From Psammoneis japonica (taxonomy: Eukaryota): a stretch of DNA of 64,000 bases. Shown here piece after piece: positions 20,520 through 64,000 of this stretch (the stretch's first letter is position 1; the number at the start of each line of letters is the position of its first letter). The notes beneath the pieces are model-generated. The model did no database searches. It was not told where the DNA came from and saw nothing but the letters and a program-made list of their open reading frames with translations. The DNA lies in assembly GCA_008632985.1 (NCBI GenBank), contig QPGO01000024.1, positions 511,848-575,847 of the forward strand, written 5' to 3'. A program made the translations under genes and the position numbers.

Positions 20520-23050
20520 CGGACGCACGATGCCAGACGAATAAAAGAGCACAACCAGGCCAGCCCGCCCAGCCATGCCCGCCATGCCACACCAGCCACC
20601 CCGCCCCAACGCAATGACCAACAACCACTTCCAACTTCTTTTGTCATGTTTTGGCCATGGCATGTGGACTGCTTTGCTTCGGCAATTACAGCAATTGACC
20701 AGATGCCATTGTCAGAGAAACAAGCTTTCAGGATTGCAGACGATGGGAAAGTCCAGCAAGAAGAAGCGCCAACGACAGGAGGTCAAAAGGGATCTGGAAA
20801 AAGTGCCAACCCCACAACCCTTGACGAACTCCATCCAAAGCAAACAAGAGATGGCATGGGTCAGAAGACCTCATCTTTGGCATCAGATCTCAAATGCCAC
20901 CAAGCAAGGAACCACTGAGTCCACACCAGCTCCGCCACTGTGGAGTCTCCAAGAAGAAGCAAGAAGAGTGTGTCAAGAAGCGTCTCATTGAAAAGGAGAG
21001 AGAATGACAAGAATCATTGCTTGCACTTGATGCCAGAGTAAGATGGCAAACTGTTTGACTCATGCCAAAAGGAATGTCATCAAGCTTTGTCTGGGAGAAT
21101 TTGAGTTGCTTGGCACAGCCAATTTGTGCAAACTTTGATCTGGCGTTTGACGTTTGATGTGTTGCACAAAAACAGGCTGTTCCTCTGTGATGCCATTCAG
21201 GCAGGGGGCATGAAGGTGTCACAAACTCAGGTGTCACAAACTCTCATTAGAAATCCAGAATCTCAACCTGTTGCCATTGGAGTTGCAGCTCTTTTCACAT
21301 CTCCATGGAGCACTTGTCCTGTGTCCTCTTCCAAGCAAAAAGATGGTGGCGAAGACCAAGCCATGTCACATCTCATCAGTTTGGGGCATTCCCATGAGGT
21401 TGCAAAGGCCTTGTGGTTGATGAGGCAACTGAGTTGCAATCTCAAAGAAAGAACTCACCAAACCCTGGAAGAAAACATGAAGCCTCATGTCAAGGATGGA
21501 CTTGTCTGCTCTGTGAGCTGCTCATCAATGCTTGTGAATTGAGCCAAACCATCAAATGCCAAACAGCGCTTGAAACAAGACCCTCTTTGTGGAATGGGCA
21601 AAATGAGTGTCAGTTGGCATTGACATTTGGGCTTGCTGGATTTTTCTTTTGTTGCAGTCTGTCACTCATTGTGAGGTGGTGGAGAACAGCTGTCAAGGGA
21701 CACAATGCGGGCATGCCATGAAGAGTTGTGCTCTTTGAGGAGTGTCTGGCAAGGACTTCCCAACACTGCCTTTGGTGATGCCATTGCCCAGCAGCACTCT
21801 TTGCCCTTTGCTGAACAACTGAACTGCAAACATGAGTGCACAGTGACAGCTGGACAAGAACAAGTGTGGCACAGTTCCACACATCGCATTGTTGCAGCAC
21901 GCAAGGGACACGGTGCATGGCAGCACATTTGAGACAAATGCCAAAGCACACTGCATGAGGAGGAGAAAGAAACACAAAGAAGGAGCTGCAGGCACCCAGC
22001 AAAAGAAGCAAGAGACTCTCTTTGGCAAAAAAGGCAAGGGCGGAACAACAGCCACTGCATGAGCTCCAGTTTGAGTGGCTGCATCAGTGGCATGTTCAAG
22101 GCAAATTGCATGCATTGTTGCATCTGCACTGGCACAAACCAATGAAGCTGCTGTTAAAGTGGTGCCCAGAGCTCAAAAAATGTTCAATTGAAACTCTTGG
22201 TCTGCCACAAAGAGTTGCCAAGAAAACAAAACAAGGGACCATGTTGGATCAGGGAAGTGTGTTGATGCAGCTGCTTTGGTTTGCGAAGATTTGCATGATG
22301 TCATGATTGAGTCATTGGAAGGGCAGATCCAACTTAACATGCAGCCCTGCCCATGCCTTGTGTTCAGCCTGCATGCACAAGGATGGCTGCAATCTGAGTT
22401 GAGGGAGGGGGGATTTGAAGGCCACACTCATCAAGCTGAGAAAGTGGCACGCAACATTTGTTCGCAAGAAACAATCTGTGATGAGAAAAAAGGTGGGTGA
22501 CACAAGAGGATGCAGGTGGACTGGCAAAGAAGGAAAGGAGCAAAACTGTGCCAAATTGGGCATTGTTGAAAGGTGCAATGAAGTGACTGAGGATTCTTGT
22601 GTGCAACGGGATGGACTCTTTTAAATGCTGGCTCCACTTTCTTGTCATGACTCTGTGACAGAACATTGCTTGGCAAGAAGTTGACTTGGATGCATTGACT
22701 GCATTGGCTTCCACTGTTTGTGTTGACAAATCCCAAATTGGAGTTTTGCTTGCTCCACCCAAGCACATGTTTTGTGGTTTTGGCAAAGAACAATGTTCTC
22801 CACTTGCAAGAACATGAGACACAGAGAGAGCTGGTCCTTCTTCGAGAATTCATCTCTGGATGTCCCACGGCAAAGCTCAGAACACCACAACTCAGCAATG
22901 ACAAGGTGCCACCAACCAATGCAATGTTCAATGGGGTGCATCCCTTTCTGCAGCTCCATGTTCTGCTCCAACAAACAGCTGCAAGGTGCGCCTCAGCAGT
23001 GCAGAACGCCACTCTCTGTGGTCGGAACGTGTCCAGAGAAAGAGAGCACC
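20520..23050. mobile_element. Unclassified degenerate TE-derived block
   Basis: About 2.5 kb with very few TA dinucleotides between two normal genes. No recognisable domain. Confidence 0.5.
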
Positions 23051-23461
23051 TGCTACACGTTGACTTGACAGAAGCGAAAGGCGTCGACACGCGAATTCGT
23101 GCAGTCTTGCCGGTGGCACATTGTCAATCTCCGAGCTACATTGCAATCTCTTTCAAATTTTCATGCTGCTGTAACTCAAAACTCCCTGCAACGTCCGTGT
23201 GACGTCAGTCTTGACGATGGCGGCGTTCCAGCTTTCCGCGCGCAAGCTGAGCTTTGCGTTGATGTTGATCGTCGAAGCCCGGAACTAACAAGTTCGCGAT
23301 CAAAGCGACGATGCCTGAGATTCAAAATGCCAGAAGACTGAAGCTGACAGCTGATAGCGATATTAATAACGAGAACCGAGCATCGTCTTGAAAGCTTCCA
23401 TCTGCTCAGACACATCGCCATACTTTTTCTTCGCTCTGAAGTATTTGTCTGGACGCGACAT

Positions 23462-32961: not shown

Positions 32962-33259
32962 GGTTGGTTCGTGCGCGCCGATCGATTGGATGAGAAGTGT
33001 GTGTACCGGGCGGTAGGTACTGTACCGTACCGTATGCCCCTGGCGCTAGCTGCGCTCACAGCATTGATGAGCATGGAGCTTCGGCCTGCTCGCTTGCGTG
33101 GTTGTTGTTGGTGGCGGCATTCTGTGATCGTTAATCTTGCGTGCATGCCCGCGCGAATTACTATCGCAGCCATACATCATGCTGTACCATTCAGCGCGGT
33201 ACAATGTGACATTCCGATTTGAATACCATATTACCGCTACGGCATGTACATTCAGCAAC

Positions 33260-36200
33260 AACCTTGCTGCCTCTGCTCCTTCCCCTTTGCCCAACATTGA
33301 GCTCTTGCTTCAGGTCCTTCACCCTGTTGATCCTTCTGATGTGCCTGCTGTCTCCCTTGCTCCCGATGTCATTCGTGACATCATCCTCAAGATGCTGCAG
33401 CACCATGAGAAATGCACCCCTGCACTCCTCTCTTTGCCCTTGACTCTTTGACACTCTCTGAAACCAACAAGCACTCTCGCCCCCACCAGAGTCAGTGCAC
33501 TTCATCCAGTCATGCCTGCAAGCTCTGCTCCCGACCTCCTCCCCTTCTGCAGTCAAGTCCTTTCCTTTCTTCTCCAAAAGTGGCATCTGCATCCTTTGCC
33601 CCACTTTGCTGAGCTCCACTTTGCCAGCACTTTGTCTGATTTCCCACATCCTTCCCACTCGCTGACCCCTGTTGTGGACAATCCTTGTGCTCGACACACT
33701 GCACTTTCACAATCCCCACCTGCAACTCCTTTGATGAGAAGGCTCTCGGCATTCTTGCTGGTCCAACCCTGACCCTTTGTGGCTCTTCCCCCTTTCCTGT
33801 CTCCTCTCTCATTGCCACTCCTTGCTTGTTGGCAAGATCTCAAGCCCTGCTGCCAACCCCATCCTGTGATCTTTTTGTGGCTGCTCTGCCTTCCTCAACC
33901 TTGTTGTCATTTGGCCATCCCAGCATCCCAACAACCTTGCCCAGTGACATCACACTGTGTTTCTGCTCTGCAAGTCTTCTGCATCTCTGCATCCTCTGAT
34001 GCTGTCTTGAATGCCCTTCTTGTTTGTGTCGCCAACCCGCCCAATGCTCCGCCTGCTCTGTCTCCCATTCTGGGCACTTCCACCACTGTCATTCCCTCAA
34101 CTCTCTTCTTGGCAAAACAACATGGGTTGTGATCTTTGCTGATTGCCTCAGGCTTCCTTTTCTCAGCCTGGCGTCAATCGCCTCCTCTCCACTCTGATCC
34201 TCCACTCTCCAACTCCCATTTTCTCTGCCCACGATGCTCTCCTGATCAAGCACAAGCTCTTTTTCTTTCCATCCCCATTTGCCATTGCTCTTTCAGATGC
34301 CAACCTGCACAACTGTGCCAGTTTCCCTTCCAACCTCTTCAATCCCACTCCAGACTCTTCTCCCAATGATGGTGCAGCCTTTCCATCCTGTGCCTCTGCT
34401 GCTCTTCAGCTGCCTGTGCCCTCCCGTGACTCCTTCTCTTGCCATGCTCTTGAGCTGCTTGCCCAAGACTGGCCACTCCCCAAGACCCAAGACCCACTCC
34501 TGACATTGGCCCTCCTCCCTTGTTTTGTCCTTCTGCCTGCCTGCTGTTGATCTGCTGAGCCTCCTCCCTCCAAGTGCCCTCATCCTTCTCCCAGTGCATC
34601 CACTCTTCCCATTGAGGTCCCTCCTGATCAAGTGATGCAGTCTGAGTCTAACGACTCTGCTGCTCCTCAGCAGCCTCAATGTGATGTGGAGCTCCTGGAC
34701 ACTCTCAACATCTTTGTTGCTGCTCATTGTCCTGCTCATCTCTCCAACTGGATGCCCCTCTGTGATGCTGCTGTCCTGGCCCTTGCCCCCAACTTTGACT
34801 CTCTCTGCCACATCATTGCCTTGTGGAACCCATCGGCACCCACACCCCACTGACCTGCCCCTTTTGTTCCTGGTCTCCTTTGTCCACAGATTCATCTTCT
34901 CTCCCTGCTGCTGTGCAAAGTCACCTTTGCCAGGAGCATTCCCATTTCTCCCTTTTACAAGCACCTGCTGATTTTTTAATGCTGCTGGTTTGCATGTCTG
35001 CAGACATTGCAATCACAGCCAACACACCCACCTTTCTCCTGCACACCTCAACAATCACCTGCAAAATGAGCACTTTGCTCCCCACAGAACCCTCAATGTC
35101 AACATTGTTGCCTCTTCCCTTTGCAATGTTGGTGACTGGCACTCCTCTCTTTAATGGCTCTGCTCTCTTGTGCCTGCACCCCCTCCCTTCTGAGCCTCCT
35201 CCCACTGCAAACTCTCCTCTTCTGTCCACAAGGAACTCTGTGCCGCCCTTCATCATGTGCTTTGATGGGTCCTTGCCACTTGTCAGCCCTTTTCTGAACC
35301 TGCTCATCTCACACCTCAATGGCAATGCAATTCTGTGCCCTTTTGCAAGCTGCTTCTGCTCTTCAAGGCTCTCATCCTTGCCCCCGTTCCCCAGTGCTCC
35401 AAATTTGGCCCTGCCACAGCCTCTTGTCTGGCTCTCTTTTGCCGTGGATGCATCTGTCAGCTCTGCAAAGATGCCTGCTCCTTCCCATCATGCTCCTCTT
35501 CTTCTGGCTCCTCTCCCAACTTCTCTGCTTCCACCTGCTGTCACTGCACCAAAGTCTGTGCTGACAAGGATGACTTTCACTCAGCCTGTTCCAAACTCAC
35601 CTGCACACTCCCTGTTGCCACCGTTGCTCCTCAGCGCCTCCCTGAGATCCTCAAGCTCTGCCCTCCTTGCCTTCATCCCTCCCAACATGCCTGATGCTCC
35701 CTCTGCTTGCTCAGCCTCTTCTCTTAAAAATGAGCCCATTGAGCTTTCTGCCGATGCTCTTCTTTCTGCTCTTTTCAAGTGCAAACCCAGCACTGCTGCT
35801 GGCGTGTTTGGTGACTCCACCAATCTTCTCAAGTCCTGTGTTCTCTGCTCCACCAAAACTCCCACTGGCAACTCCCACTGCCCCTGTTTGCCTCCCTTTT
35901 GAGAACTCCTCCTCCTTCTCCTTCATGGCTCTGTCCCTCCTTCTGTCCTCCCCTTGCTTGCCTCCAATCACTTTGTTGCCACTCACAAGGACCCTGATGA
36001 CCTTGACAAGCTTTGCCCCGCAGGCATTGGCATGGCCCTTTGCCACACAACTGCTGGCTCTGTCATTGTGACTCTTTTTGTTTCTGACTTTACCAAATGC
36101 TTTTTCCCTGATGGTCAATTTGGAGTTGGTGTCAAAGGTGGTCTTGGCTGCATTGTTCACTCCACTCATGCCAAACATTGAATGACATCTTTCCACTGCT

Positions 36201-38340
36201 GACCCTGCCAAAGCTCTTCTGCTCCTCAATCTTGTCAACATGTTCAACAAAGTCTCCCGTGATGCTTGCTGTCACCTTCTTGCCTCCATCAAGGCCTTTC
36301 ATCTGCTTTTCCCATTCTTTGATCTCGTGTGTCAGTGCTCCAATGACTGCTGGTGCCATCACTCCAACTCTGCTTGGCCCCCTTTGTTCAAGAAGAAGGC
36401 TTCGCCCAAGGCTGCCCCCTTCTTGGCCTGTCTTTGCTGAACTGGTCCTTTCCCTTGTTCTCTGCCCACTTGACAAAGAACTCCTTGAGTGCATTCCTGG
36501 TTGCTCTTCCACCTCTGTTTGCTCTCACATCAATGATGCACACACCTTTCTCTCTCATTGTGCTCTTCCATGGTCCCTCAACGCTTCTCTGTGCTGGGTG
36601 CTCCCTGCTGTGGCATCACCCTTGGCCTCCACAAAACCAAGATCCTCACCTCCATCACTGGCATCAGTTCATCCCCACTCTCCCTCCCTCTCAAGCAGGC
36701 CCTCTTTTTGTGCCGCTCTCTCATGTCTCAACCCTGTGCATGACCCTTGTTCCTGCAACTCGGAGCTCACTTCAGGAGTCCACTTCCTTGGCCAGCCCCT
36801 CAACTCCCAAGACTTTGCCAACTGCTTCCTCTCTGCTGCCTCCTCTGTGCTCTCAGACAAAGTTGGCAAGCTCCTCACCGCCTTCACAACAAACAAACCC
36901 AAGCCCAACTCTTCAAGCACTGCTTCACTCCCTCCTCCACTCACCTGCTTGGCACCAGTTTCCACCACAACTTTGACCCTGGCGACCCTCCTGATCCCTT
37001 CCTTTGGACCTCTTCCTTTCAAGACTCTCTTCTCACTGCCACTCATTGACTCCTTTGCTGCGCTGTCTCCAGTGCTGATCCTCTCCCAAATCATTCCCTT
37101 GCCACTGCTTTCCTCCCTGCTTTGCTTGGCGGGCTTTGGCCTCCGAGACCCAGCAGCTGCTTCCATCCCTTTCTTCCTGGTTGCTCTCCTCTGCTCACTC
37201 CACTTTGCATTTCATGGAGTCCAACTGCCATCTGGCAACACCATTGCTCTCCCTCACTGTTTCAGGCTGTTTTGGTCCTCCTGGAACAACCCCCACTTGA
37301 CCTTGCACCTCCACAAGATCTTCTGCTCCTGTGCCCCCACTCTTGCCTCCACTTCCACCCTTGCTGCTTCTTCCCTGGCTGCTCTTGTCAAATCTGCTGC
37401 TCTTCCTGGCCTGGCACACCATCTCCATCACAAGCACCAGCAGCAAATTGCTGCCTCTGCCCTTGCCAATGCTCCCCCTGATGTGCAAGTCTCCCTGTCT
37501 TCCCTGCTGTCTCCACTCACCAGCCTTCCTCTGCGCTCCCTTTCCATCACTTCCAGAGCTCCCACCATGCCTCTGATGCTTGCACCATTGCCACCCAACA
37601 CAAAAACTCCACCTCCCTGTCCTTCCTCCCTCTCTTGTTGGCACACCCTGTGGTGGTCTCTCAACCCTCAACACTTGTGACAATCATGCCTTCTCTTGCC
37701 ATGGTGCTCCTCCTGGTTTGCCTGCTCTCTCTTCTCCCTTTTTTGCCAAGGCACACCATGTGAGTGCAAGATTGAAATTCCATGGACCCTCTGCTTCCTC
37801 TTCTGACAGATCCCTTGTTGTTGCTTTGCTCAAAATGACAGCATCTGCCTCCTCCCTGTTGCAATTGATCATTTTGGTGGTCTTGGTTTTTCATGGATTC
37901 CTCTTTGGCTCTTTGCTCTCCTCCACCTGCTCTCAGCCCAAGCCCCCTTGGTCCTCCTCTTCTGACCTGCAACACTCCAATGCCTTCTGCTCAGCCTTCC
38001 TCTGTGCCTTGGCATCTCTCTCTGCCCTTTTTCTTTTGTCTGCCAATTTTGCTTGGGACCAAATTTCCAGTGACTGCTTTGGCAGCACCCCTCATGCTGC
38101 CTCTCCCTCCAGTGGGCCATTCAAACACTTGGCCACAACCTCATTCATCACCCATCTCTGCATGCCCTCCACTTCACCTCCTTTCTTCCCTGCTCCTGCA
38201 TCCCCCACTCCCTCCGCCAAATGCCCTGCATCCTGCATTCTGTGCCCTTTCTACAGCCACTGTCACAACTGCAACTGCTTCTGTGCCTCCTTCTGCTGTC
38301 ACCATCCACTCTCCAAGGGCTCTTTAACTCTGCATTTAGT
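33260..38340 (+). mobile_element. Degenerate, near full-length CRE-clade-like non-LTR retrotransposon
   Basis: RT motifs AAGVFGDSTNLL (~35795), HKDPDDLDKLCP.GIG (~35985), QFGVGVKGG, LLNLVNMFNKVSRD, QEEGFAQGCPL (~36390), HIND for YIDD (~36526) and GVHFLGQPL. GFGLRDP follows. The C-terminal WDQISSDCFGSTPHAASP is homologous to the end of the element at 1-2359. Confidence 0.85.
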
Positions 38341-39920
38341 TTAAAAGGAAATGTTGACTGCTGTCACCAAAACAGTGAAACCAGTGGAAAACAATGTGAA
38401 CCCACAGCAGCTCAAATTGAAAACAAGAAATCAGTGAAGTGCCACCACACCTCATCATTCCCCATCAAACTGCCAGGCCAAAATGATGTGAGAGACATCA
38501 AAGAGATGATGTGGTGCCCCACTTTATTTCATCTTGCAAGACAAAGACAGGGGACATCATGAACTTTTCAGCAACAAGCAGCAGTGGCAGAGTGATTTGT
38601 GCTGTGCTGAGAAAAGAGCACAAGAGCAGCAAAAGGGAACAAGAGGTGCACACCCCCAGCCCCCCTCAGAGCAACAACTGCACCACTTTGAAGAGAGAAG
38701 AGGTTTCAGCCTGCAGCAGCTGCAACCACATGTGCACAAACAGCAATGACTCATTTGCAAAAGAGAAGAGAATTGTGACCCTGGTCAAAAAGCTCAGTCA
38801 CTGTGGGAAGTGCCAGCAGGCCATCTCTGGCCCAAGCTGCTGTCATGTTAGGCAGCATGAAAATGCTCCTCTGCAGAGACTGCAAAGAGCCACCCAAGGA
38901 AAGCTTGGCTGAAATGAGCCCAATGATGTTCAAGCCACATTCAGCCAAAAAGTCCAACCCTCATTTTTGATGTGAACTCTTCCTTTCTTCACAAAAAAAA
39001 AACATTGCACTGCAACATTTGCACTCTTTGTGCCACATTGTGCTGCAGTCTCTGACCGGCACTCTGGTTGACATGCAGATTGTGATGACAATGAGGCAGA
39101 AGGACAAAAAGAGTGACAGGTGGTTGTCTCCCCCCCAGGGATTTTTGAGGTCAAGCTGCACATGGCATGGAGCAGCATCAAAAGTGCCAAGGAGCAGCTC
39201 AACATGTTGTCAGAAGCCACTGTGTTCTCAGAAGTCATGGGGCTTTGCTTGCAGCCATCAAATGACATGGCAGAGCCACAGGCACTTGTTGAGAGGCTAG
39301 AGAACAATGGCAAGGTGTGAGCCCCCCTGCAATGTGGGTGTGCTCCAGAGCCCTGGGTGGAGTGCCATGTGCTGACATTGGGCCCACAAAATTTTGCATT
39401 TGTTGACAAGCTCCACAGCACAATTGCGCAAGGCAGCACAATCTTCTGAGCACTCAAAGCAAACTCTTTCTGGCATGCTCAGCCACACTCTTCTTCAGAC
39501 ATTTAAAGATGCAACCAACTCACTTTTGTTCTTGAAAATGTCCAAAACAAACTGTTGCTGACTTCACAAAAAGCAGGTTGTTTGAAACAGCATTGAATGA
39601 GAGCACACCCAGAGATGAGCATGTGATTTTTGCATGGCTGGCAAACAATCAAAGATGGTTTCTGTCTCAGCCCAGCAATGCAAGGCCCAACCTCTGGAGC
39701 TGGAGTGCCCCACCTGTGTGCAAAAGCCAGGACAGGGAGGGTGGAGGTTCAGCCAAGTGGGGCAAAGCACCAAGCCAGGAGAGAATTTTGAAACACAAAA
39801 AAATTGTCAGGATTTGAGGGAGAGCAAGGCAGGGTTTAGGATGAGAGTGCAGCAAATCAACATGCAAGAGAGAGGACAAGAAGGACAGCATGCAGTTTTG
39901 TCCTGTGAGATCACATGTTT
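38341..39920. mobile_element. Unclassified degenerate TE-derived block
   Basis: Purine-rich and TA/CG-depleted. No assignable domain. Confidence 0.45.
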
Positions 39921-42444
39921 GTTGCTTGAGTCAACCCACCTGTCCCCCCCAGTGACCATGCCTCTGAGGATCTCATTGACACAACAGCAGCACCCATGAT
40001 GTCAATGACAGCAGGCAGCAGTCTTGTGCCTGGCTTTGGCCAGCGCTGTTGTGGCTGCCTGCAGCATCTGTGAAGAGCTTGAACAAACATGTGGCTGGCA
40101 GCTGCTGCCTCAGCCACTTCCTTGTTGTGCTTTGCACCAGCCACATGTTGCACTTGATGGATGATCAGCTGTGCTGGTTGACTTGTTCAAAAAAGTGGAG
40201 AGAGAAAGAGGAGAGAGGCTTCTCTCCCAGCTCCAAAGCCAAACAAACATCAACTTGAACGGCACCAAGTCTGTCCACCCCACAGCACATCAGATCTTCT
40301 AACAGCAAAAACAGCCTCAACCAAACACACACACACACACACACCTTCGCATCTTTTCAAAGAGGGAAGGGGGGGGGGGGGGGGCACAAAAAGTGAGAGA
40401 GAGAGAGAGCAAGATGAGTTGTTCAAATCAACCCACCTGTGTCCTCCCTGCAGCGGCCATGCCTCAGATCTTTTTGGCACAGCAGCACCTGCCATGTCAA
40501 CAACAGCAGCCAGCTGCTGAAGCCACCACAAAAGTGTTGCTCCTGTCTTTGGCTGGTGCTGCTGTGCCTGCTGCTGTCTGCGTCTTGCAGCTGGACAGGC
40601 ACTTTGTTGCTGTCTGGTTGCAAGCAGGGTTGCCAACACAGCCACTCTTGAAGACAACAGTGATCACAGTTGAAGAATGTGCATCCAATCCACATTGACC
40701 CACACACATTGGAAACCATCCAAGAGCACCCAGTGCCAGCCTGCCACCTCAAAAGACAAACTTGCCAAGCTTTTCATGAAGTGCAAACAAAGAGTCAACC
40801 TCCTTCCACACCAACGTGAAACTCTTGCTCATCTGCAAAAATGAGATGACTTGTTGTTGCACAGAAAAGCAAGAATGGCTTTCCACAATCAACTTGAGAA
40901 CATTGCTCTGTGTGTTTTTGACACCCATCTGAGCAATCTGAGCAAATGTCAAAGCCATGCTGCACCAAGCATGGATTCAAAATCTTGCCCGCAAAACTGG
41001 ATTGCCACGCATGAAGGCAACCTCTCCCCAGTGGAGTGCAAGTGCTTGAAATGTCAACTTGAGAGATCAGGGAAACCCCATTTCCCATCTTCTGCTTGCC
41101 CTGAACATTCGCAACCCCCCCACTGCTGTGGCCCCAATCACATTTGCCAGTGGCAGCCTCTTCTGTGGCCTGGGCATGTGGTGGGCAGATGACAAGCTCC
41201 AACGAGCCACACGGAAACAATGGCTGCAGCTTGAGAGCTCTTTTGACCTGACCTCAAGCAAGAACCAACCCAAATGCTTGCACCACCAAACTGCCTCATC
41301 ATCACATTCTCCAATGCCAAGGCCTGCTGTCCCAATGTGCTTGCCACCAAGGCACTTTGAAAATCTCTGCCCACCTCCAAAGCAATGAAGCTCTCTGTCA
41401 AAACATGCCAATGAATGCTCTCATTGAGGCCCTCTAAATTGTCATGTGCAACAACATCTTTGGGGCCCTGCCTTTGGCAACACTGTCTGGCATCATTGCA
41501 ATGGAAGAACCACCATGGGCACACCACCCACCCACCCCAATGCAATGTTGTGCTGTGCCATGCGCAAAAACGTGCTTCTGGAGGAGTCAGCTCCAACCTT
41601 GTTGCTCACCACAAGCAATTCATTGACAACATCTTTGGCACTCAAAACACCACCAACCCTTCCACCAACCCTCCTCTTGGAAGCCTTTGTCTCAAGACTG
41701 AATGACTTTGAGAGATGAGCTGGGTCGCCAGCCCCAGACCCCACTTCATGGACTTCATGGACCTCATGGACCTCACCATGTCCCTGCAAATGTCCCTGCA
41801 AAGCTCAAGAATTCACACAACACCCTCTGCAAACAGAGCCATGAACCTGCACCTCTGCATCCTGTCACACTCTGCATCTCAACAGCCCTCCAAAGTTTCA
41901 TCCTGCTGGGATGCAAACAGTGAGCACCTGCACATCCCATCACATTCAGCACATCCACCTGGAGTGCTCACTGGCCCAATTGTGGGCATGCCTTTTTGCT
42001 TCAAAAATCTTTGCTCCAACCCAGCCAACTCAAAAGCAAAAACAAAACTGCTCTGCCTCTGACCGCAAGCTCAAGAACTCAAGCCCAGCAAGCCACAACC
42101 ACTCTCTTCCAAAAAGCACACAACCGGCAATGTGACAAGAGTGGAAAAGCTCCAGTCAAACCTTGTCTTCCTGTGCATCCTGTGCCACCACTTGAATGAC
42201 CTGTGCCATTGGAGCAAACTTCAGAAGCTGTGGAAAGGAACAACGGCCAACCCTCCCTGTTCACAACCCCTTTTAAACCTCTGCAACCACACATGACAAT
42301 GCACTGGACTCAACTGCATGATTGTCTGTTGCAGCCACACTTGCCACTTGTGTGACCTTGGAAACCTTCACTCATGCCACAAACTCCACACCTCCCACAT
42401 GCCCCCCCAGCTGTGTTCTGTTAGATTGCAAACAGGGAGGCCAC

Positions 42445-42485
42445 TGAGAGAGAGAGAGTTGTTTGAGAGAGAGAGAGAGTTGTTG

Positions 42486-42537
<52 letters not shown>
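42445..42537. repeat. (GA)n microsatellite at the 3' end of a PLE copy (similar tracts at ~42638-42659, 42922-43009, 45358-45409)
   Basis: Directly visible GA dinucleotide runs. Confidence 0.95.
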
Positions 42538-42540
<3 letters not shown>

Positions 42541-42977
42541 GGACTGTCCAAACAAGCAGCTCCGCCTCAGCCACTTGCACTGTTTGTTGGTCACATTTGA
42601 TGGAAAATTGGCTTTGCCAATTTTGTTTGTTTGTTGGAGAGAGAGAGAGAGAGAGAGAGCACAGCATGGCACAAACCAACCTGAAAAATCAACTTTTTAA
42701 CAACACAACAACCTCAACTGTGAAGCAACAACAACAGCCAGAGCCACCATTGACAAAGCCACCACAAAAGCCTCACTCCTGACTTTGGCCAATGTTGTTG
42801 TTGCTGCTGCTGTTTGCTGAACAGTTGGGCGAAGATCCAACCAAGAAGCTCTGGCTGCCCTGGCCACTTTCTGTCCACTTCTTTGTCTCATGTTTGACAG
42901 AATGTTGTGTTTGTTCATTCAAGAGAGAGAGAGAAAGAGAGATTTGGAGAGAAAACAAATTTGATGATCATTCATTT

Positions 42978-43010
<33 letters not shown>

Positions 43011-43885
43011 TCAACTGGAAACTTTGCATCTGTCCTCTGCCCATCTGGCATCTTTTTGACACAACAGCTTTTGGCTCACATCAACAACATCAGCCACTGG
43101 CTGCTGATGAAGCCACTGTGAAAATCTCCTCCTGACTTCAGCCAACCCTGTTGTGCCTTGCTGCATCTGCAGTTTGGAAAAGATCTGAGCAGCAGCGGCT
43201 CTGCTTTGGCTGCTCAATTCTGCATTGGTCACATTTGGTGGTCACTTGTTTCTTCAAGAGAGAGATGGACAGACACTCAAATCAAGTGTCTGTTGGTCCT
43301 CCCCTCAACCACAAAACCACCTTAAATTTTTTTAATCTTTCCATTGTGATTGACCAAGCTTCGTGTGCTTCATGTGATGCTCTGCAAAAAGGAAATGAAT
43401 CTGTGTTTGTGTGCGCCACCTCACTCAGCTGACCCGCCTGAAGTGCTCGCTGGCATTGTTGCAGGCGTGCCAGTTCAACTCAAAAATCTTTGCTCTGATC
43501 CTCACAATGTGCAAGGAGCCAAGATGAAGCTGCTGCACAAAACTGCTTGCAAGCTTGCGGACATCAATCCAACACACTGAAACCAATTTTCCACAATCAG
43601 CATGGCCAGAGCAGCGCCCCACTCCAACCCAATCTTTCTCCACATGCCCTTCCATCCAAATGACCCACACCTTCAAGCAAACTTCAGAAAATTTGGAAAG
43701 GCACTGTGTCCCACCCCCTTCCACTCACAACCACGCTCTCACCTTGCAACTGTGCAGGACAACACATTGGCCTGGACTGCATCTGAAGTTGCTCACGCAA
43801 CCTCAGGAACCTGCTGTTGCACTGCAAGCTTTGCGTCTCTGCTTCGTCCTGCCAGATTGCAGACAGAGAGGCCGCTGCATCAGCT

Positions 43886-43953
43886 CGTTTGTTCGTTCGT
43901 TCGTTCGTTCGTTTGTTTGCTTGTTTGTTTGTTTGTTTGTTTGTCTGTCTGTT
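43886..43953. repeat. (TTCG)n/(TTTG)n/(TCTG)n tetranucleotide microsatellite
   Basis: Directly visible. Confidence 0.95.
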
Positions 43954-43957
43954 TGAG

Positions 43958-43992
43958 AGCTGATGAAGCCACCGCGAAAGTCCCACTCCTGA
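43958..43992 (+). ncRNA. Putative minimal type I hammerhead ribozyme motif (PLE-associated)
   Basis: CTGATGA-A-GC(CACC)GC-GAA-AGT(CCC)ACT-C gives the core boxes, a 2-bp stem II, a 3-bp stem III and a CUC cleavage triplet. Degenerate copies at ~40514, ~42750, 43104 and 45568. Confidence 0.55.
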
Positions 43993-46601
43993 ATTTGGCC
44001 AACACGTTGTTGTGCCTGCCACTCATCAAACAGTTGGACAAATGTCCAAACTGGTCTGCCTCAGTCACTTGCGTTGTTTGTTTGTCACATTTGACGGAAA
44101 ATTGGCTCACCCAATTCTGGTTGTTTGTTCGTTTGAGAGAGTGACCAACCCATGACCGACTGGAACTCATTGCCGGCACACCGGCAAGGTTGTTTTCTTT
44201 CACATTGATCTTTGAATCCACCTGTCTGTCCCAAGCTCCAGAAGGTTGCTTGCCACTGATGACCACACTTCAAGAGCTCCCTGGACCTGAAACAAAAACT
44301 TGTCAAAATGAAGATGCCACCAAATTGCCTCGCCCTGCTCACATCTGATGCCGAGGCCCACTGCTCAACACACCTGCCAACAAAGCATTTTGATTTTGAT
44401 TGCATCCCATCTTTGATGTCATGAAACAACTGCAACAATGCACCGACAGATGCTCTCATCAAAGCCCTCCAAATTGTGATGGAAAATGAGGTGTTGACAT
44501 TTGGAGACACCGCCTGGCACCAGCACAATGGAGCCACCATGGGCACACCACCCGTCCCTCCACACACTGCATTGTGCTGCACACTCCACAAAGACATGCT
44601 CTTGGAGGAGTTTGGCTCCCAGTTGTTTTGCTGCAAACATTTGTTGACAACATCTTTGGCACCTGGCACATCACAGACACCGCCACAGACACCACCACCT
44701 GGAAAGCATTCACCTCCAGGCTTGACAACTTTAACATTGCCTGGATCATGAGTGCCCGAAGCTGCCAAGTTAACTTTGTGGACCTCACAATCTCGCTCCA
44801 AGGCTCCCACCATTGTGCCACCCTCCATGAAGAAGAGGTGGACTTGTGTTTGCATGCTCCACCCAGCTCAGCTCATTTGCCTGGAGCACTCACTGGCCCA
44901 ATCATGGGTGTGCTCTTTCGCTGTAAAAATCTTTGCTCTGACACTGCCGACACAAAAGCAAAAATGAGACAGCTCTGCCTCCAACCCCAAGCTTGAGGTT
45001 GCAAGCCCAGCAAACTGCAGCCACTCTTCTGAAAGGTGTGTGATCTCATCTTTGGAAATGCAGCCAGAGCAGCTCAAGAAACCCAGTCGAATCCCATCTT
45101 CCTGTGCATCCCTTGTCACCCAAATGATCTGCCATTGAGTGAACCACAGCAACTGTGGAAAGGCACAATGGCCACCCCTCCCTGCTCACAGCCCCTCTCA
45201 AACCTTCAAAATCATGCTTGACAATGCACCAGCCTTGACCGCATGACTGTCTGTTGCAGCCACTTGCACAACCTTGGAAACCTTCTTTCCTGCTGCAAAC
45301 TTGCATCGTCCATGCCCCCCAGTTTCATCTTGTCAGATTGCAAATGGGGTGGCTCCTGAGAGAGAGAGAGAGCTCACTCACTCAAGAGAGAGAGAGAGAG
45401 AGAGAGAGATGATGATGGCAACTTTGAACTGAGTCACTCAAATCAACTCATCTGTCCTCCTTTGGAACTTTTTAATGCAGCAACTCCCACCATGTGCTCT
45501 GCCTCAGCTGCTTGCATTGTTCCATGTTGTTTGCAGCTCCTGCCATGTGAGCAACAGCAGCTGACCCCTGATGAAGCCACCATGAAAGTCTTGTTCTCCT
45601 GACTTCAACCAATGTTGTTGTGCCTGCTGTTCACTGAAACAGCTGGACAATTGTCTGATTGAGCAGCTCCACCTCAGCTGCTGGCATCATTTGTTTGTCA
45701 CATTTGATGGAGAGAGCGACCAACCCACGACCAAAACTCACTGCTGGCACCTCATTGCCGGCACACCGGCAATGAGTTTTTGTGACCATTTCGTTTCACA
45801 TTGATCCTCAAATCCACCTGTCTGTTCTCCCTGCTGCAATGTCCACACCTTGGATCTTTTCAACACAAGAGTTTCTCAGCCACCTCGCCACATCAACAAC
45901 AGCATCAGCTTCGGCCAACAATGTTGTTGTGCCTGCCATCAGCTTGACAGCCAGACAAATGTCCAAAAAAGCAGCTTCTGCCTTGGCTGCTCCTTGTTTT
46001 TTGTCAGTCATGTCAGAGTTTGACAGAAAATTGGCTGTGAAGAGTTTTTCATTCGTTCATTCGAGAGAGGAGTGGCCAACCTGCGACCGAAAACCATTGC
46101 CGGCGCACTGGCGACACATGGCTTGTTGCTCCACAGTGTGTTTGGAAGCATGTGTTTCAGAACTGCAGAAAGGACAATGCCTGCTTTTTTTCATCAATCT
46201 CATGGTTTGCTGTCAACTTCGGCTGACTCAACAAGTTCATCTTCTCTGTCGCTGTTGGTTAGGCAGGTGGAAACTACCTCGTTGTGCGTGTACGTTTGTC
46301 CGCACCAGCCGTTTCTGTTTCCCCAGCATCTCCAAAATTTCTCATCTCCAGTGTGCTAGCTATGTGAGTGCCGAAAACACCCCTTCGCTTTCCCGCCCGA
46401 CCGTGTCACAGTACATATTCCACGTGAGTTCTACGCCGACTTCAAGAGCAGTTGTAGCATCACGTCTTTCGTCTTTCGAATTGATTTGTCGACTAATCAC
46501 ATCTCACATACACCAGGACGGTGACAAAGAAGAGTATTTTCGGCATTGTCGACGCAAGCAATCCTACCCTTGTGCTTCAATACTGCCTTCCGACAACCAA
46601 A

Positions 46602-47784: not shown

Positions 47785-47858
47785 GATGAGCGAAATGTGT
47801 TTTCTCATGCAAACTAAACCTGTTCATAAGTTTCATTACCACATACTACAAATTGCAA

Positions 47859-48150
47859 AACAATTGCGCGATACACGTGCCCGAAGGTCGAATATCGTTG
47901 CCCGAAGCAACATTCTTCCTTCGCGCAGATGTCCATTCTACATAGTATATGGCATTGAAAATCTCATTGTAGTCGCATGAGTCGTTGCAGTAATTTCATC
48001 AATGACCTCTGTGGTACTGTGCTACGTGATCTACACAAATCGGACATTCTCGAATGCTGGTATATTTTCTACGGTCGCTACGTGCGCGAAGCTCGAATTT
48101 CGTGCCCGAAGCAACAATCACCCTTCGGGCACGTGTATCGCGCAATTGTT
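47859..48150. mobile_element. MITE-like element with perfect 29-bp inverted repeats
   Basis: AACAATTGCGCGATACACGTGCCCGAAGG (47859-47887) and its reverse complement (48122-48150), extending imperfectly ~15 bp further out. Internal direct repeat TCGAAT..CGT.GCCCGAAGCAACA. Confidence 0.75.
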
Positions 48151-49123
48151 CAGCAATTCGCAGCAATGTCAATTTGGATTTCTGAGGCTTTGTGCTGGTG
48201 CAAATGTTGGCTAGATAGGCAAGATCATGCTAGTTGGAAAGGGGGTGCGTACTCCACCTGCACGAGTGTGCTCTGAAACTCAATCGAATCTAGCTCGCAT
48301 GTTGTTGTGTGAAAAGTGACACCCCAGATGGCGCCATGAACGTGCTCTGCATTCGTTGCCAATGCATTTTGCCTTTCAAGAGGTGGCAATCCCATTGTGC
48401 TGCACCCACCTGGCTGCTCTGCTAGAGAGTGCATCCACCATGCTGCACCCACCCTGCTCCAGCCAGAGGGCCTGTGGTGACTCTCTCAGGTGTGACAGCC
48501 ACCTGGAGAAGCAGCTGGCCCTGCAGCAATGGCTCCCCACTCTCTCTGCTCCGGGCGAGCCATAGCCAGGCATCAGGCATCAGTGCCTGCCGGTGATCTC
48601 TACTTTCTAGAGACTCTAGCAGAGTGTGCTGTGCGCACACGACTCCAGGGCCTCAGCGCGACTCCCGCCCTCTGCTGTCCAGAGCAGACAGTGGAGCCCA
48701 CCTGCTCAGGAGTGGCCACTGCTGCTAGCTCTCTAGCCAGCTAGAGAGCAGCTACAGTGTATGCTCTCTACTCTCTCTCTACTCTACTGCCGGTGGTAGA
48801 GAGAGAGAGAAGTGCAGTAGAGAGTAGAGAGAGCCCATCCAGCCATCCTCCAGACTCAGTCGACTGCATGTCGAACGACCGGAAAGTTCGGACAAACTCG
48901 CATGCACAAAAGAGCCTGGCGGTGCGCGCGACGCGACGACAACAACAACCAGTCAGGCTCTGCTCGTCGGTATGGTAGGTAGGTACTGACTGTAGTTGCG
49001 TTGAACGCGTCAGCGTCAGCATTTTTCGAACGAAACAGAAGCTAGACCTACTCTAGAGTGTACGATAACTGGCCTCTTGGTTGCTATCCTCTCCTACTCG
49101 TTGAAAAGTTAAGAAGAACAGAC

Positions 49124-51250: not shown

Positions 51251-51479
51251 CGTGAGGAGCGCTGCAAGCAGAGAAGGTCTGGATTTTTTGTGTGCTTTTG
51301 TTTTGTGTGTGGTGTGCATGTGCCGCCGCCTTGCTGCAGTTTGGATATTTTCGTTTATTGCATATATTTATTGCTCCGTAATACATTTCAATATATTTTA
51401 AAATATAAATTAAAGACTATATTACTCTATTACGTATCCAGAATGAACAATCATCATTTCTAATCGTAATGACCCGTCT

Positions 51480-52820
51480 GCTTTCGCACGGTGTCCAGCG
51501 CATGCTTGCGCACAAAACTCTGTGAGTGTTTCTCTGTGAATGCTTCCCATTGTTGACGAACACAACAAGCAAAAGACAGGGTGTGTGTGTGTTCTCATCA
51601 TCATTTTGGAGTGACTGTGGCCAATTTGCTGTTGATGGCTCCTCATCACTGCAGCAGGAGAGTCTCAGTGGCGGCGGATCACTTTGCTGCTGGCTCGCTC
51701 TGCTGGCTGGTGTGCCGTGACCAGCCAGTGCCAGGGCCGCTCAAGCAAACAACCAACGATGCTGGTGACAGCCCACACAAAACTTCCAACAGAGAAGCAA
51801 CTTTTTAAAAGGGGCTCTCAGAGTTGCTTGGTCAATGGCGCTCTCAGAGGGAGCAGTCAGACGCACAAAAAGCACGGCTGCAAGCACAGCATGGCACAAT
51901 GTGACGGTGCTGCACAGAGTGTGGTGCACCACTGTGCTGAAAAGATGCAGCGCACCAAGAGTTGATCTGTTAACAAGGAGCAGAAAAAGAAACCACTTTT
52001 GCTCATCCCTCTTGTGGCACAGAAGTGACAGCATGGTGGCTGCACTTGCGGGGAACTGAACTTTGTCAAACCTTGCAATGGAAAAGAAGAAAGCTCTGTT
52101 GTGTCAAATCCCAGGGATGCAGCAGTTCAAAATGTTGATTGAAATGGAGACATTTTCATGGCACAGCAGAGGAGCAAGTTTTGACAATGGGTTGCACAAG
52201 CAAGTGCCAGTCTTTGTTTGCCGTGCAGAAAACTGCAGAGGAGGTGGCAACACAGATCAGTTCACTCCCAACATGAACAATGAAATGTCTTGTTTTGTCG
52301 CCCCCCCCCGTGCTTCTTCTTTGCTGCAACATTGGTTTCCCACATGCACTGTCTTGAAAGGTTCCATGCTGCAGCTTCTGCTCTCCAGGCAGCATCTTGA
52401 GGTTGAAAGGTTCTGCATCAACATTTGCATGCCACTGAATCTCAATGTGTGGCTTTCAAACCTTTAGAAACTTGCAACTGTGGATGAGGGGCACTGTCAA
52501 AGGGAGGGACGTGAACGTTCATGCTCCCAGACAGATTTTGTTGACAATTGTCAAGGATGACTTGATGATGCCCGTGCAGTGTTTGACCGATGGTGGGGAG
52601 GAGATGCACTCCACATTCCACCTGTCCCGTTCCCGAGTTTTTCATTCTCCAGTGACAGGTGCACTTCGAGAGAGCATTGGCCTGAACACACATGCATGCA
52701 GACGAATGAGACCACAACCATTTTGTTTCAGGTTGAAATCAAGCATGAGCAAGCACCTTTCGACGGGAATCGGAACATTTCATTTTAGACTCTCCAACCT
52801 TGTGCCAGGCTCAATACAAT
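51480..52820. mobile_element. TpA-depleted block (TE- or gene-fragment-derived)
   Basis: Composition matches the other eroded blocks. No assignable domain. Confidence 0.45.
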
Positions 52821-60308: not shown

Positions 60309-60619
60309 GGTCGCTCAGTATTCGTGATACAACAATACACCTAGTAGAGGAGAGACCAGAGCGAGAGGGAAACGAAAGAAGCGTGGTACGGATAAGTACG
60401 GAGGAGCTGTCACGGTGTTCTTGTTGATCTCGTGTCTCGTGGTTGTTGGGTTGTTGACATTTTTTTTATCGACGACCTCGCGGCCGGCAGCCGAGGGTGC
60501 TATCCACGGCAACAGTACAGGATGTACAAGAAGCTAACGTATGTAGAAGCACGTACCGAACATACTACGCCATAAAAGGTTGTATTCATCATCCGGGTTC
60601 CAACGCATTTCGTCACGAA

Positions 60620-61430
60620 AAGTTGTCAACAATGAGGTGCACACAGGCACACAGGCGCACCGAGCTGCTGGTCCTCCCCCGCCTTCTCTCTCTTCCTCTT
60701 CTTGTGCACTCTTGTTTTTGTTGTCTGTTTTTTTCTCCTCTTCTTGCTGCTCTTTTGCTCTTCCTGCTTCTTCTGTTGTGCACAGCACCTCTTCTTGAGC
60801 CTTTTCTCCAGTGTGCCAGCCTGGCCAGGCTTTTTGTTGCTTGCAGCGACGCCCAGCGCACCAGTTTCTCACTCTCATCTGCTGGCTGGCCAACCCCCCC
60901 CTCTGCTGGCAGCCAAGAAAAAAGGCATTGCACATTGCTGCACACTGCAATGTCTTTGAAAGAGGAGTGAGGTGGACCTCTTCCCTTGCTCTCCATGGCT
61001 TGGCACCTGCTGCACGAGCACGCGGTGTTGAACAACAAAGCATTCAGAACACAGATGCAGTGCTGTGTGCTCAATGAAGAACACACCAGTGTTCTGATTT
61101 TGCTTTGAGCCCCAGCAACAGGAGCAGCCACCAGCAGGGCCCTCTTGCTCTGTGCTGACTCCACAAAAGGCTTCTTCTCCTGCCTGGCTCTTGCAGTTTC
61201 TTGTGCCCCTCCATTTTGCGGCCCTTTTGCAAGAAGAGGAGAGCATCAAACAAGAAAAGAAAGCAAACAAAAAGTGGGGCAGGCAGAGAGAAGGGTGTGT
61301 GTGCTCTGTGTGGAGGCGGGGCTTGGCATCATGCCTGGCACCACCAGACCCAGAGGAAGAGCCATGACATGCTGGGTTGGTGGGCCAGATCTTGTGCTGA
61401 CAGAATGGGGCTGATCTGTGAATTTTTGTC
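60620..61430. mobile_element. TpA-free degenerate block, unclassified
   Basis: Composition only. Confidence 0.4.
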
Positions 61431-61630
61431 ATCTTTCAGGTGCTCCAGGTGATGAGGACAAACAATTCTCTGGGTTCAGTTGAAACGTGTGTGGTGACAA
61501 GTTCTGGCTCCAGCAGTGGGATCACCAGCTGGGCTTTTGTGTGTTTGTCGTTGTGTTCATGGCGGAGGTTGCTTCACCGCGCAAGAGACAAACGCACATC
61601 CAGCAGGGCCCTGCCTGCTTGCTTGCAATG

Positions 61631-62842
61631 GACCATGGAGATTCGGAAAAATTGGTTGCACTGTCCATCTGTCGCCATGCATCCCAGATGAAAATCAGAC
61701 GTGGTGCAAGCAGCCAGTGTGGTGAATCATCGGCCGCGATGCCAAAAAGAAGACACTGTTGCACCACATCATCAAAAGAACATGGAGACAAGAGATCACC
61801 ATCATTGAGAGCTGCATCAATGATCTAAAGCACTGGTTTTTAAACACACAATTGCATTGAAACCCCCAGCAATCCCTCCATGAGTGGTCACCGGTCATCT
61901 CAAGATCCCGCCGCCGACGGTTGGTGTGTTGCATGGGCTCCAACCACTGCCAGTGCTGGCAGCACACAGGCTCCCACTGCCACCAGCACCTGCAGCAAAA
62001 GGCTCCAACTGCCTCCAGTGCTGCTGGCACACAGGTGCCCACCGTCACCACTGCTGGCAGTTGTGCACAGGCTCCCACCACCACCACTGCCAGCAGCACA
62101 CAGGCTCCCACTGCCACCACTGCTGGCAGCAAAACACCTCCAATCACCACCACTGCCAGCAGCATGCAGGGGCACCATCAACACCAGACAAAAAGAATCC
62201 AACCACCTTGAATGCCAGCGGCACCCACCACCACCAGATGGAAAGGACAGTGGTGCACAGGCTCCAACCACCGCAAGTGCTGGCAGCTGTGCAGGGTGCA
62301 GCCTCCCACTGCCACCAGTGCCAGCATCACACAGGGGCACCCACCACTGCCAGATAGAAAGGACAGCAGTGCACAGGCTCCAACCGCTGCCAGTGCTGGT
62401 GGCCACACAGGATGCAGCCTCCCACTGCCACCAGTGCCAGCATCATGCGGGGGCACCAGCAAAAGGCTCCTGCCGCCGCCAGTGCTGCCACATTCAGCCC
62501 TGCCACAATGTGCAGTCCAGCCCATAAATTTATGTTGAAAACAACACCGTCAGAGACGCCACCAATGTGACAGATCTCTTTCAAACTTTCCAACACATTG
62601 TCACATCTAGAAGCATGCACTGTGGCATGGCCACGGGAACGCACTGAAGATGCCGCCACCGCATCATCATCGTGAAAGTGCCATTTGCGCTGGCCTCACG
62701 CAAATTTGAATGAGGCCTGATTGGCGCAACTGCCATTTCAGTGTAGCCCCACGCAATGTCATGCACGTAGAATCCCACACAAGTTTTGTGAACGCATGGA
62801 AGGACAGGCCAAGTGCAACCATTTTTTCAAATCTCCACAGTC
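61631..62842. mobile_element. Non-autonomous TIR element (1.2 kb) inserted in repeat copy A
   Basis: Left end GACCATGGAGATTCGGAAAAATTGGTTGCACT matches the reverse complement of the right end, GACTGTGGAGATTTGAAAAAATGGTTGCACT. The host repeat resumes after it. Confidence 0.8.
61935..62500. repeat. ~33-bp degenerate minisatellite (GGCTCCCACTGCCACCACTGCTGGCAGCACACA) inside the TIR element
   Basis: Visible repeated GGCTCC.AC..C.AC.A.TGC units. Confidence 0.85.
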
Positions 62843-63742: not shown

Positions 63743-64000
63743 TTAGTCTACATGACGACGTTTCGCAGTGCCGCCACGCTGTAGTCGTCTTTCTTCTGCC
63801 TTCCGTTTACGCCTTTTCCGTTCACTTTGGTGCTTCTTCATTTTGCGAGCTGTGGCCACTTGTGGATCCTGAACGGCTTCCACTGCCAATTTCTGCTTGC
63901 GCGCTTCCTTCTTCTCTCGAGCTCGGACCTTCACAGATGCGTACGCCTCTAGGAATCCCTCCGTACCACAGTGCTCTTCCAGCACATGGAGTACGTTTTT
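63743..64000 (-). CDS. 3' end of small-subunit processome component UTP20-like gene (partial)
   Basis: G.E.FLEAYASV...R..RKQKLAVEAVQDP..A..RKMKKH..KRRKRK resembles UTP20 C-termini. The gene runs off the window. Confidence 0.65.
   Translation of the reverse strand, partial: KNVLHVLEEHCGTEGFLEAYASVKVRAREKKEARKQKLAVEAVQDPQVATARKMKKHQSERKRRKRKAEERRLQRGGTAKRRHVD

Follow-up and report, generated by a model that had tools for sequence, protein, structure and literature searches.

What removes one dinucleotide, TpA, almost completely from long blocks of a nuclear genome while the genes between them keep it, and what marks those blocks out? The question is posed by a 64,000-nt stretch of the diatom Psammoneis japonica (assembly GCA_008632985.1, contig QPGO01000024.1, positions 511,848 to 575,847 of the forward strand), which is the window analyzed here over its full length and numbered from its first letter. 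Seven sharply bounded tracts, together 28,552 of the 64,000 nt (~45%), hold 85 TpA where ~1,230 would be expected at the genic rate, and comparisons among repeat copies and between a pseudogene and its homologues trace the missing TpA to changes into TpG and CpA. This footprint is in itself near certain; its chemistry, by inference, would be a deamination of adenine.

Within the tracts TpA makes up 0.30% of dinucleotides (observed/expected ratio, o/e, 0.05), CpG 1.53% (n = 438, o/e 0.24) and TG+CA 21.2%, whereas the non-tract remainder (35,447 nt) has 1,528 TpA (4.31%, o/e 0.64), 2,005 CpG (5.66%, o/e 0.99) and 14.4% TG+CA. The 14-fold reduction of TpA is accompanied by the loss of about three-quarters of the CpG and by an increase in TpG and CpA, the gain in TG+CA (6.8 points) being close to the combined loss of TA and CG (8.1 points). 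It does not extend to AA, TT or AT, whose o/e values in the tracts and in the remainder are 1.26 versus 1.11, 1.15 versus 1.12 and 0.79 versus 0.93 (mildly lower), respectively, and G+C lies between 0.478 and 0.552 across the tracts compared with ~0.48 in the remainder of the window. In 1-kb windows TpA o/e ranges from 0.00 to 0.16 in the seven tracts and from 0.42 to 0.85 elsewhere. A preliminary description of this DNA, made by a model from the letters, had reported nearly TA-free blocks beside genes of ordinary TA content; the blocks are real and their limits were placed within ~300 nt of ours, and TpA o/e in 1-kb windows, a measure of the kind that it proposed as a check, sets the tracts apart from the remainder of the window.

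Tract limits were set by inter-TpA gaps of at least 200 nt, and the longest TpA-free run is 2,161 nt (36091-38252) compared with a maximum of 219 nt outside the tracts. At the edges at 33247, 8314, 51467 and 60583 TpA passes from ~1 per 10 nt to none within ~10-20 nt, and the shift in CpG falls at the same place or within ~200 nt of it. The seven tracts are the following.

1..2153, tract truncated by the start of the window, with 2 TpA and 48 CpG
6559..7339, short TpA-free tract with 1 TpA and 9 CpG, its open reading frames (ORFs) without a Pfam family
8314..14505, TpA-poor tract with 36 TpA and 156 CpG, the least CpG-depleted among the long tracts
20687..23054, TpA-free tract with 6 TpA and 25 CpG
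33247..46260, main tract, with 27 TpA, 115 CpG, 1,328 TG and 1,388 CA in 13,014 nt
51467..52786, TpA-free tract with 4 TpA and 32 CpG
60583..63307, tract that starts ~275 nt upstream of AP-2 mu and ends within a 348-nt tandem array, with 9 TpA and 53 CpG

At the genic rate the main tract would hold 561 TpA in place of its 27 (binomial log10 P = -202). In six of the seven tracts TG is about as frequent as CA, the exception being 1-2153 (156 versus 256). As a composition control we used metagenome contigs of relatives, namely 40 loci of at least 3 kb among 80 around AP-2 mu (391,190 nt in all), in which the longest TpA-free run was 346 nt and no 1-kb window had a TpA o/e below 0.15; these contigs are gene-rich and repeat-poor and serve for composition only, with little bearing on other diatoms.

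The direction and timing of the change can be read from two sets of tandem copies, one of which spans a tract edge.

63307..63760, plus strand, unmutated rest of the 348-nt tandem family, used as the reference within the window to polarize the change
41400..45830, plus strand, three tandem units of ~1.46 kb (spacings 1431-1494 nt), whose copies differ mainly by TG versus CA

The 348-nt array (62847-63569) crosses the tract edge at 63307: TpA is missing from copy 1 and from the initial third of copy 2, whereas TA is retained in the remaining part of copy 2 and in copy 3, with a TpA o/e of 0.73 over 63307-64000. In all, ~450 nt belonging to this family (83-92% identity), directly adjoining the mutated copy, retain TpA, and in the aligned columns TA outside the tract stands opposite TG or CA inside it, as in CTAGAG / CTGGAG / ACAGAA and TTTAGTT / TTTGGTT / TTCAGTT. 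The pair 62844-63338 versus 63190-63658 contains 10 TA/TG and 2 TA/CA differences in 47 mismatches, and four repeat-copy pairs yield 22 TA-to-TG/CA events. Among the 1.46-kb units of the main tract the three pairwise comparisons give 46, 31 and 18 TG/CA sites; for 41946-42458 versus 44868-45370, 23 of the 121 mismatches are CA/TG double differences, compared with 1 of 43 in a genic paralogue control pair. Because in-tract copies differ by TG versus CA, the loss of TA (or CG) must have taken its own course in each of them once they had been duplicated, and a TpA-free founder copy is ruled out by these independent states. Runs tests on the order of TG/CA sites along the copies (22 runs versus 23.9 expected, 15 versus 16.1 and 11 versus 9.8) found no strand-coordinated clusters of events. 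Thus, we conclude that TA was changed to TG or CA in place, after duplication and on either strand.

Some details of these copies stand apart from that argument. In the 348-nt array the TG/CA states of copy 1 recur unchanged in the first third of copy 2, from which it appears that this part was duplicated or converted after mutation, and the switch to unmutated sequence at 63307 falls within copy 2. Microsatellites of the (GA)n and (GTTT)n type lie within the 1.46-kb units at 42446-42537 and 43887-43955. The genic control pair consists of convergent TauE/SafE-family genes, 23348-24907 (plus strand) and 25956-27305 (minus strand), which share a 230-nt inverted match of 79% identity (24880-25108 versus 25759-25983).

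The same change can be followed in a coding sequence that has decayed within the tract 20687-23054.

20928..22571, plus strand, hypermutated FTO-family (2-oxoglutarate (2OG)-Fe(II) dioxygenase) pseudogene, interrupted by seven in-frame TGA stops and by a change of frame near 21965

Pfam scans of this tract returned FTO_CTD (E 9e-10, 39.1 bits, cut-off 27) and FTO_NTD (E 4.4e-6, 26.6 bits, just below the cut-off of 27), and a tblastn alignment with nine homologues found by HMMER covered 20928-22571. Opposite the 105 aligned tyrosines of the homologues the pseudogene reads His 38 times, Cys 28 times and Tyr not once; the control gene AP-2 mu retained Tyr at 103 of 132 positions. The 15 columns with Tyr in at least three homologues comprise 6 CAY, 5 TGY and 4 other codons. 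The occurrence of His and Cys in about equal number within one gene means that both strands were hit, which would exclude pre-integration editing of a single-stranded RNA or cDNA. Every one of the seven in-frame stops is TGA, and at two of them (21540 and 21930) Arg is found in six and eight of the nine homologues, respectively, which indicates a CGA-to-TGA change. Taken with the unmutated reference copy and the in-tract pairs, the Tyr positions bear out the DNA-level, both-strand conversion of TA to TG/CA put forward in the preliminary description. The FTO family demethylates N6-methyladenine and 3-methylthymine, and a relative of an adenine/thymine-repair enzyme is here itself the victim of A:T-directed hypermutation.

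The CGA-to-TGA stops raise the matter of CpG, which is also depleted in the tracts. Relative to genic frequencies the per-tract loss amounts to 87-98% for TpA and 55-84% for CpG, and a G+C-rich, CTAG-rich segment at 48300-48850 has a CpG o/e of 0.26 yet a TpA o/e of 0.66. Since TpA and CpG are lost to different extents in the individual tracts, and since CpG has decayed at 48300-48850 without loss of TpA, we conclude that TpA loss is a process separate from CpG decay, as had been proposed beforehand. Decay of 5-methylcytosine at CpG would account for the lowered CpG of the tracts (o/e 0.24 versus 0.99), for part of the TG/CA gain and for the CGA-to-TGA stops in the pseudogene, and is unable to remove TpA.

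The bases flanking TpA appear to influence how fast it is lost. A pyrimidine (Y) precedes 79% of the surviving TpA (n = 79, both strands counted) compared with 44% in genes, and survival is 0.42 for TTAA, 0.17 for CTAA/TTAG, 0.10 for CTAG and 0 for ATAT and for ATAC/GTAT. The tetranucleotide analysis was used solely for these survival values; a tetranucleotide mass balance of TA-derived against CG-derived TG was rejected as confounded by tract composition, for example by GTGG/CCAC repeats. Where the ancestral state is known from repeat pairs, Y-TA-Y became TG in 4 of 4 cases and R-TA-R (R, purine) became CA in 3 of 3 (manual count), and Tyr codons of the pseudogene became Cys in 4 of 5 cases after Y and His in 5 of 6 after R. 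Counting Y-TA-Y, R-TA-R and Y-preceded Tyr events, 11 of 12 follow one context rule. This small sample fits a process in which A would be hit fastest in T-A-Y or, equivalently, T in R-T-A.

As to what directs the change, three features of the window are informative.

38401..41400, part of the main tract at about single-copy depth, with 6 TpA (o/e 0.03) and a CpG o/e of 0.07
47846..48163, terminal inverted repeat (TIR) element of 318 nt, resembling a miniature inverted-repeat transposable element, with 42-nt arms that are 90% complementary; an unmutated comparator
12120..12293, minus strand, Copia-type integrase C-terminal (SH3-like) fragment (PF25597, 32.5 bits, cut-off 27)

Summed depth in sequencing run X1 is ~60 in the genes flanking the main tract, compared with 150-860 over most of that tract, which is thus multi-copy, and 59-104 over 38401-41400. 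The bin of the TIR element has a summed depth of 2,644 (~40-fold), and the element has a TpA o/e of 0.71 and a CpG o/e of 1.59. From the unmutated neighbor copy of the 348-nt family and the unmutated TIR element on the one side, and from the mutated stretch at about single-copy depth and the cellular-type pseudogene on the other, it follows that repetition is neither necessary nor sufficient for targeting, and the label "repeat-targeted" in the preliminary description is not supported. The sharp tract edges, one of which interrupts a tandem array, are compatible with a signal tied to position, for instance that of a chromatin domain.

Fewer mobile elements than had been described could be confirmed in the tracts. 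In the main tract no credible Pfam family was found among 209 ORFs (71 + 138). Scans beyond it covered 92 ORFs of the other tracts and 100 shorter ORFs (1-2200, 8300-14600), and over all tracts they returned only SH3_retrovirus, the two FTO domains and a sub-threshold match to RVT_1 at 2-808 (plus strand, E 0.029); a few short matches, such as FOLN over 10 residues, were taken as chance. The SH3_retrovirus match (PF25597) comprises residues 334-391 of the ORF 10608-13292 (minus strand) and has the motif FLGCS in place of FLGYS, which we take to be usual for Copia elements, and homologue searches with this Copia-like ORF found nothing. No convincing TIRs or target-site duplications were seen at the ends of the tract 51467-52786. 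In these scans the recognizable viral or transposon content of the tracts comes to one Copia-type fragment, beside one cellular-type pseudogene and a main tract that is largely multi-copy. The earlier assignment of all blocks to transposable elements holds in so far as one contains an integrase fragment, and is supported neither for the tract with the FTO-family pseudogene nor, by the Pfam scans, for the main tract; LINE, Penelope and TIR elements in the tracts were not confirmed by the Pfam scans, whereas the tandem repeats that had been noted are present as the 1.46-kb units and the 348-nt array.

A search with sampled words of 31001-41000 listed no RNA data set that contains them. Contigs of a further run, X2, cover the genes flanking the main tract and almost nothing of 33601-46200, a blank that is not evidence of silence. 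They skip 32298-32379, 32594-32809 and 46941-47063, whose ends read CT..AC (minus-strand gene) or GT..AG; these splice-type ends identify the skipped stretches as introns, and X2 thus behaves as cDNA, although it carries no record of being RNA. The TIR element at 47846-48163 lies in a stretch covered by these cDNA-like contigs. Between the tracts are compact genes for GILT, NUDIX, DHHC, two TauE, NOC3, fatty-acid desaturase, PP2C, PfkB, cwf21 and AP-2 mu, the last a fragment with 92-95% identity to diatom transcripts and 93% to Seminavis robusta, which identifies the host as a diatom. Within the main tract, 34001-38000 is asymmetric between strands (GC skew ~-0.39, AT skew ~-0.32), with no protein domain found, and 1-2000 has the same asymmetry (GC skew -0.47), which suggests that the two belong to one oriented repeat family. 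With TAA and TAG gone and TGA as the remaining stop, the tracts contain long overlapping ORFs in six frames, for example one of 522 aa at 36112-37680. A single N stands at position 772, within the first TpA-free tract.

We consider it probable, though well short of established, that the tracts are inactive, decayed diatom nuclear DNA in which two in-place transition processes have run, the distinctive one being a deamination of the adenine of TpA within DNA under the direction of chromatin. A locally targeted hypermutation would turn the A:T pair of TpA into G:C almost to saturation, a hit on the A of the read strand giving TG and a hit on the A of the other strand giving CA. The events would be single and independent, on either strand and faster at T-A-Y, so that Y-TA-R, above all TTAA, would survive longest, and ordinary CpG decay, a slower process in the same tracts, would also end in TpG/CpA. 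The putative enzyme would be a TadA/ADAT2-like deaminase that converts adenine to hypoxanthine in DNA, and what guides it would be a mark of chromatin or of silencing, not the repetition of a sequence. Members of the TadA/ADAT2 family have as their natural tRNA target A34, which is always preceded by U33. The process may be of the same kind as the TpA hypermutation of the alga Bigelowiella natans.

Several points weigh against this interpretation. The steps that concern the enzyme and its targeting are inferred, and the sequence alone cannot separate the A side from the T side of the pair. The context rule draws on 12 informative events and 79 surviving TpA, some of the events share a common reference copy, and the surviving TpA could in part be new mutations; at R-TA-Y sites, where no preference is predicted, 7 CA were nevertheless counted against 2 TG. 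The segment 48300-48850 and the unmutated neighbor copy imply that DNA methylation, if it is behind the CpG loss, is insufficient for targeting. Run X1 may be the window's own assembly data set and hence not an independent sample. Moreover, the B. natans process, as presented in the main text of the preprint, involves no change in CpG and is far from saturation, and is maybe not the same system.

The same transition can also be reached from the thymine of the pair. Oxidation or hypermodification of T in R-T-A by an enzyme of the TET/JBP type, to 5-hydroxymethyluracil (5hmU) or a base J-like product, and then either a mispairing with G or error-prone repair would give T to C, and as TpA is self-complementary such a change in R-T-A fits every observation as well. 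Thymine-modifying enzymes of kinetoplastids have TpA-containing repeats among their targets, and in dinoflagellates TA and TC are the sites at which 5hmU is enriched. A near-exclusive change of T to C would not, however, be expected, since 5hmU has normal pairing with A and its base-excision repair opposite A leads back to T, and a literature search on 5hmU and N6-methyladenine (6mA) in diatoms found nothing relevant among the papers listed; we regard a thymine-first route as unlikely. A different objection concerns the trigger and not the base: any duplicate might be recognized by pairing, as in repeat-induced point mutation (RIP), and mutated with the opposite chemistry. The multi-copy state of most of the main tract, the affected tandem units and the sharp edges, which resemble the ends of a duplicated segment, all agree with such a homology trigger. 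It is contradicted by the ~450 nt of neighboring family sequence that retain TpA at 83-92% identity, by the 318-nt TIR element that is unmutated at ~40-fold depth and by 38401-41400, TpA-free at about single-copy depth, and we hold it to be distinctly unlikely.

We find even less room for an origin before integration or outside the cell. If element RNA had undergone A-to-I editing by an ADAR/ADAT-like enzyme, or its cDNA deamination, and had then been inserted, the sharp edges could be insertion boundaries, one tract does contain a Copia-type fragment, and the FTO-family pseudogene could be a retrocopy. Such editing would be expected to mark a single strand, whereas the pseudogene has 6 His (antisense) and 5 Cys (sense) columns, TG and CA are about equal in six of the seven tracts, the change is nearly saturated, one tract edge falls inside a tandem array and tandem copies have diverged independently; the scenario is accordingly very improbable. 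Miscalling of modified bases, by which a long-read consensus would show TG or CA in place of TA, deserves mention in that neither the assembly nor run X1 has a recorded sequencing platform and modified bases give systematic miscalls in some long-read data. De Bruijn contigs of X1 (word depth ~60, longest 315 kb) nonetheless cover 30001-47871 with 1-6 differing letters each, and the run holds 0.91 of sampled words from 31001-41000. An agreement of this kind with the main tract is not expected from error-prone reads; it places the letters in accurate reads, beyond a polished consensus, and answers the concern about a polishing artefact raised in the preliminary description, the contigs carrying the same letters as the tract. 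In addition, paralogues within tracts have TG/CA states of their own as well as differing indels and CGA-to-TGA stops, and TA is read intact in identical repeat sequence a few hundred nt distant. A consensus artefact is thus unlikely, and a sequencing or assembly error of any such kind has very little probability left. Pol eta-type error-prone patch repair, a WA-to-WG process (W being A or T) that had been named as a candidate, and GC-biased gene conversion in repeats both yield A:T to G:C, and tract G+C is slightly higher, but the Pol eta type of change would take A to G at AA as well as at TA. As AA and TT are not depleted and AT only mildly, the 14-fold loss is specific to TpA, which makes both of these mechanisms highly implausible.

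Chromatin-directed deamination of adenine at TpA is thus the interpretation that we carry forward, and it has consequences beyond this window. To our knowledge, the one account of targeted chromosomal A:T to G:C hypermutation is a preprint of 2026 that deals with one alga; the same footprint is now seen in a diatom, that is, in a different and ecologically dominant lineage, where it is at saturation and strikes decayed repeats and a cellular-type pseudogene, not recognizable viral genes. The case is extreme and clean. The possible flanking-base rule could help to identify the enzyme, and enzymatic adenine deamination, if true, would amount to a natural DNA adenine editor. In practical terms, the loss of TAA, TAG and every Tyr codon creates long spurious ORFs that gene callers would take for genes, and transposons or pseudogenes in such tracts are hard for homology searches to detect. 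Some diatoms are transformable, so that the question could become experimentally testable.

The kind of process that we describe has been reported once, very recently, and the diatom case appears to be new. The preliminary description knew of no account of such a system; the signature is, however, that of a preprint of 2026 (Mettrop et al., bioRxiv 10.64898/2026.01.13.699255), whose main text gives 231 new mutations for the two integrated viral regions (giant-virus and virophage DNA) of B. natans mutation-accumulation lines, 230 of them A to G or T to C and all of these at TpA; the rate, ~1000-fold over background, was raised only in some of the lines. According to the same text, TpA-poor, CpA/TpG-rich genomic clusters are enriched for reverse transcriptase and DDE domains, and the authors propose an ADAT2-like DNA adenine deaminase. 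On that account the two cases are alike in that only TpA is affected, TpG or CpA results according to the strand, and the change is confined to discrete tracts in an otherwise ordinary genome. They differ in host, B. natans being a chlorarachniophyte and the present host a diatom (stramenopile), and in extent, the TpA o/e of 0.05 in our nearly saturated tracts comparing with 0.45 given for the B. natans viral region. In addition, CpG decay coincides with TpA loss in our tracts, their content is decayed repeats and a cellular-type pseudogene without recognizable viral genes, and what we describe is a historical footprint where the preprint reports a measured rate. The T-A-Y flanking preference is seen in the present tracts; a word search of the preprint's main text found none of "diatom", "context", "trinucleotide" and "flanking", and its supplements may hold flanking-context data. 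A literature search found no report of TpA hypermutation in diatoms, and one candidate report, PMC9258296, proved unrelated by a term search.

Among classical systems, RIP of Neurospora and other Ascomycota is the closest analogue in logic, in that dinucleotide-specific transitions on both strands inactivate unwanted DNA and leave sharp, compositionally skewed tracts. It fails on chemistry and on targeting. RIP turns CpA into TpA and lowers G+C, whereas in our tracts TpA is destroyed, CA and TG are higher and G+C is raised; RIP mutates all sufficiently long duplicates, whereas here an adjacent copy of the same family and a multi-copy TIR element escape.

The likeness to the A-to-I deaminases is one of chemistry, a deaminated A being read as G in the case of TadA/ADAT2-ADAT3, Tad2-Tad3 and the ADARs alike. 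The 5' neighbor of the A edited by these enzymes is U or T. Their substrate is RNA, and action on DNA is confined to in vitro and reporter assays, whereas the change described here is heritable, chromosomal, on both strands and limited to domains; two reports illustrate the range, mRNA editing being reported for fungal Tad2-Tad3 (PMC11087585) and action on DNA for amphioxus ADAT2 (PMC10354150). APOBEC3 shares with the present case the principle of defense by deamination of unwanted nucleic acid, but it targets cytosine in single-stranded cDNA and marks one strand. The single-strand mark expected of RNA or cDNA editing is not what the tracts contain, both strands being hit within one gene and TG being about as frequent as CA. 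Finally, we put forward, tentatively and as a possibility that we would not yet back, that diatoms and chlorarachniophytes share a chromatin-directed T-A-Y DNA adenine deaminase that, as a natural A-to-G base editor, would gradually clear silenced DNA of TpA and might be an old genome defense of the SAR group (stramenopiles, alveolates and Rhizaria) and a counterpart of RIP with the opposite chemistry.

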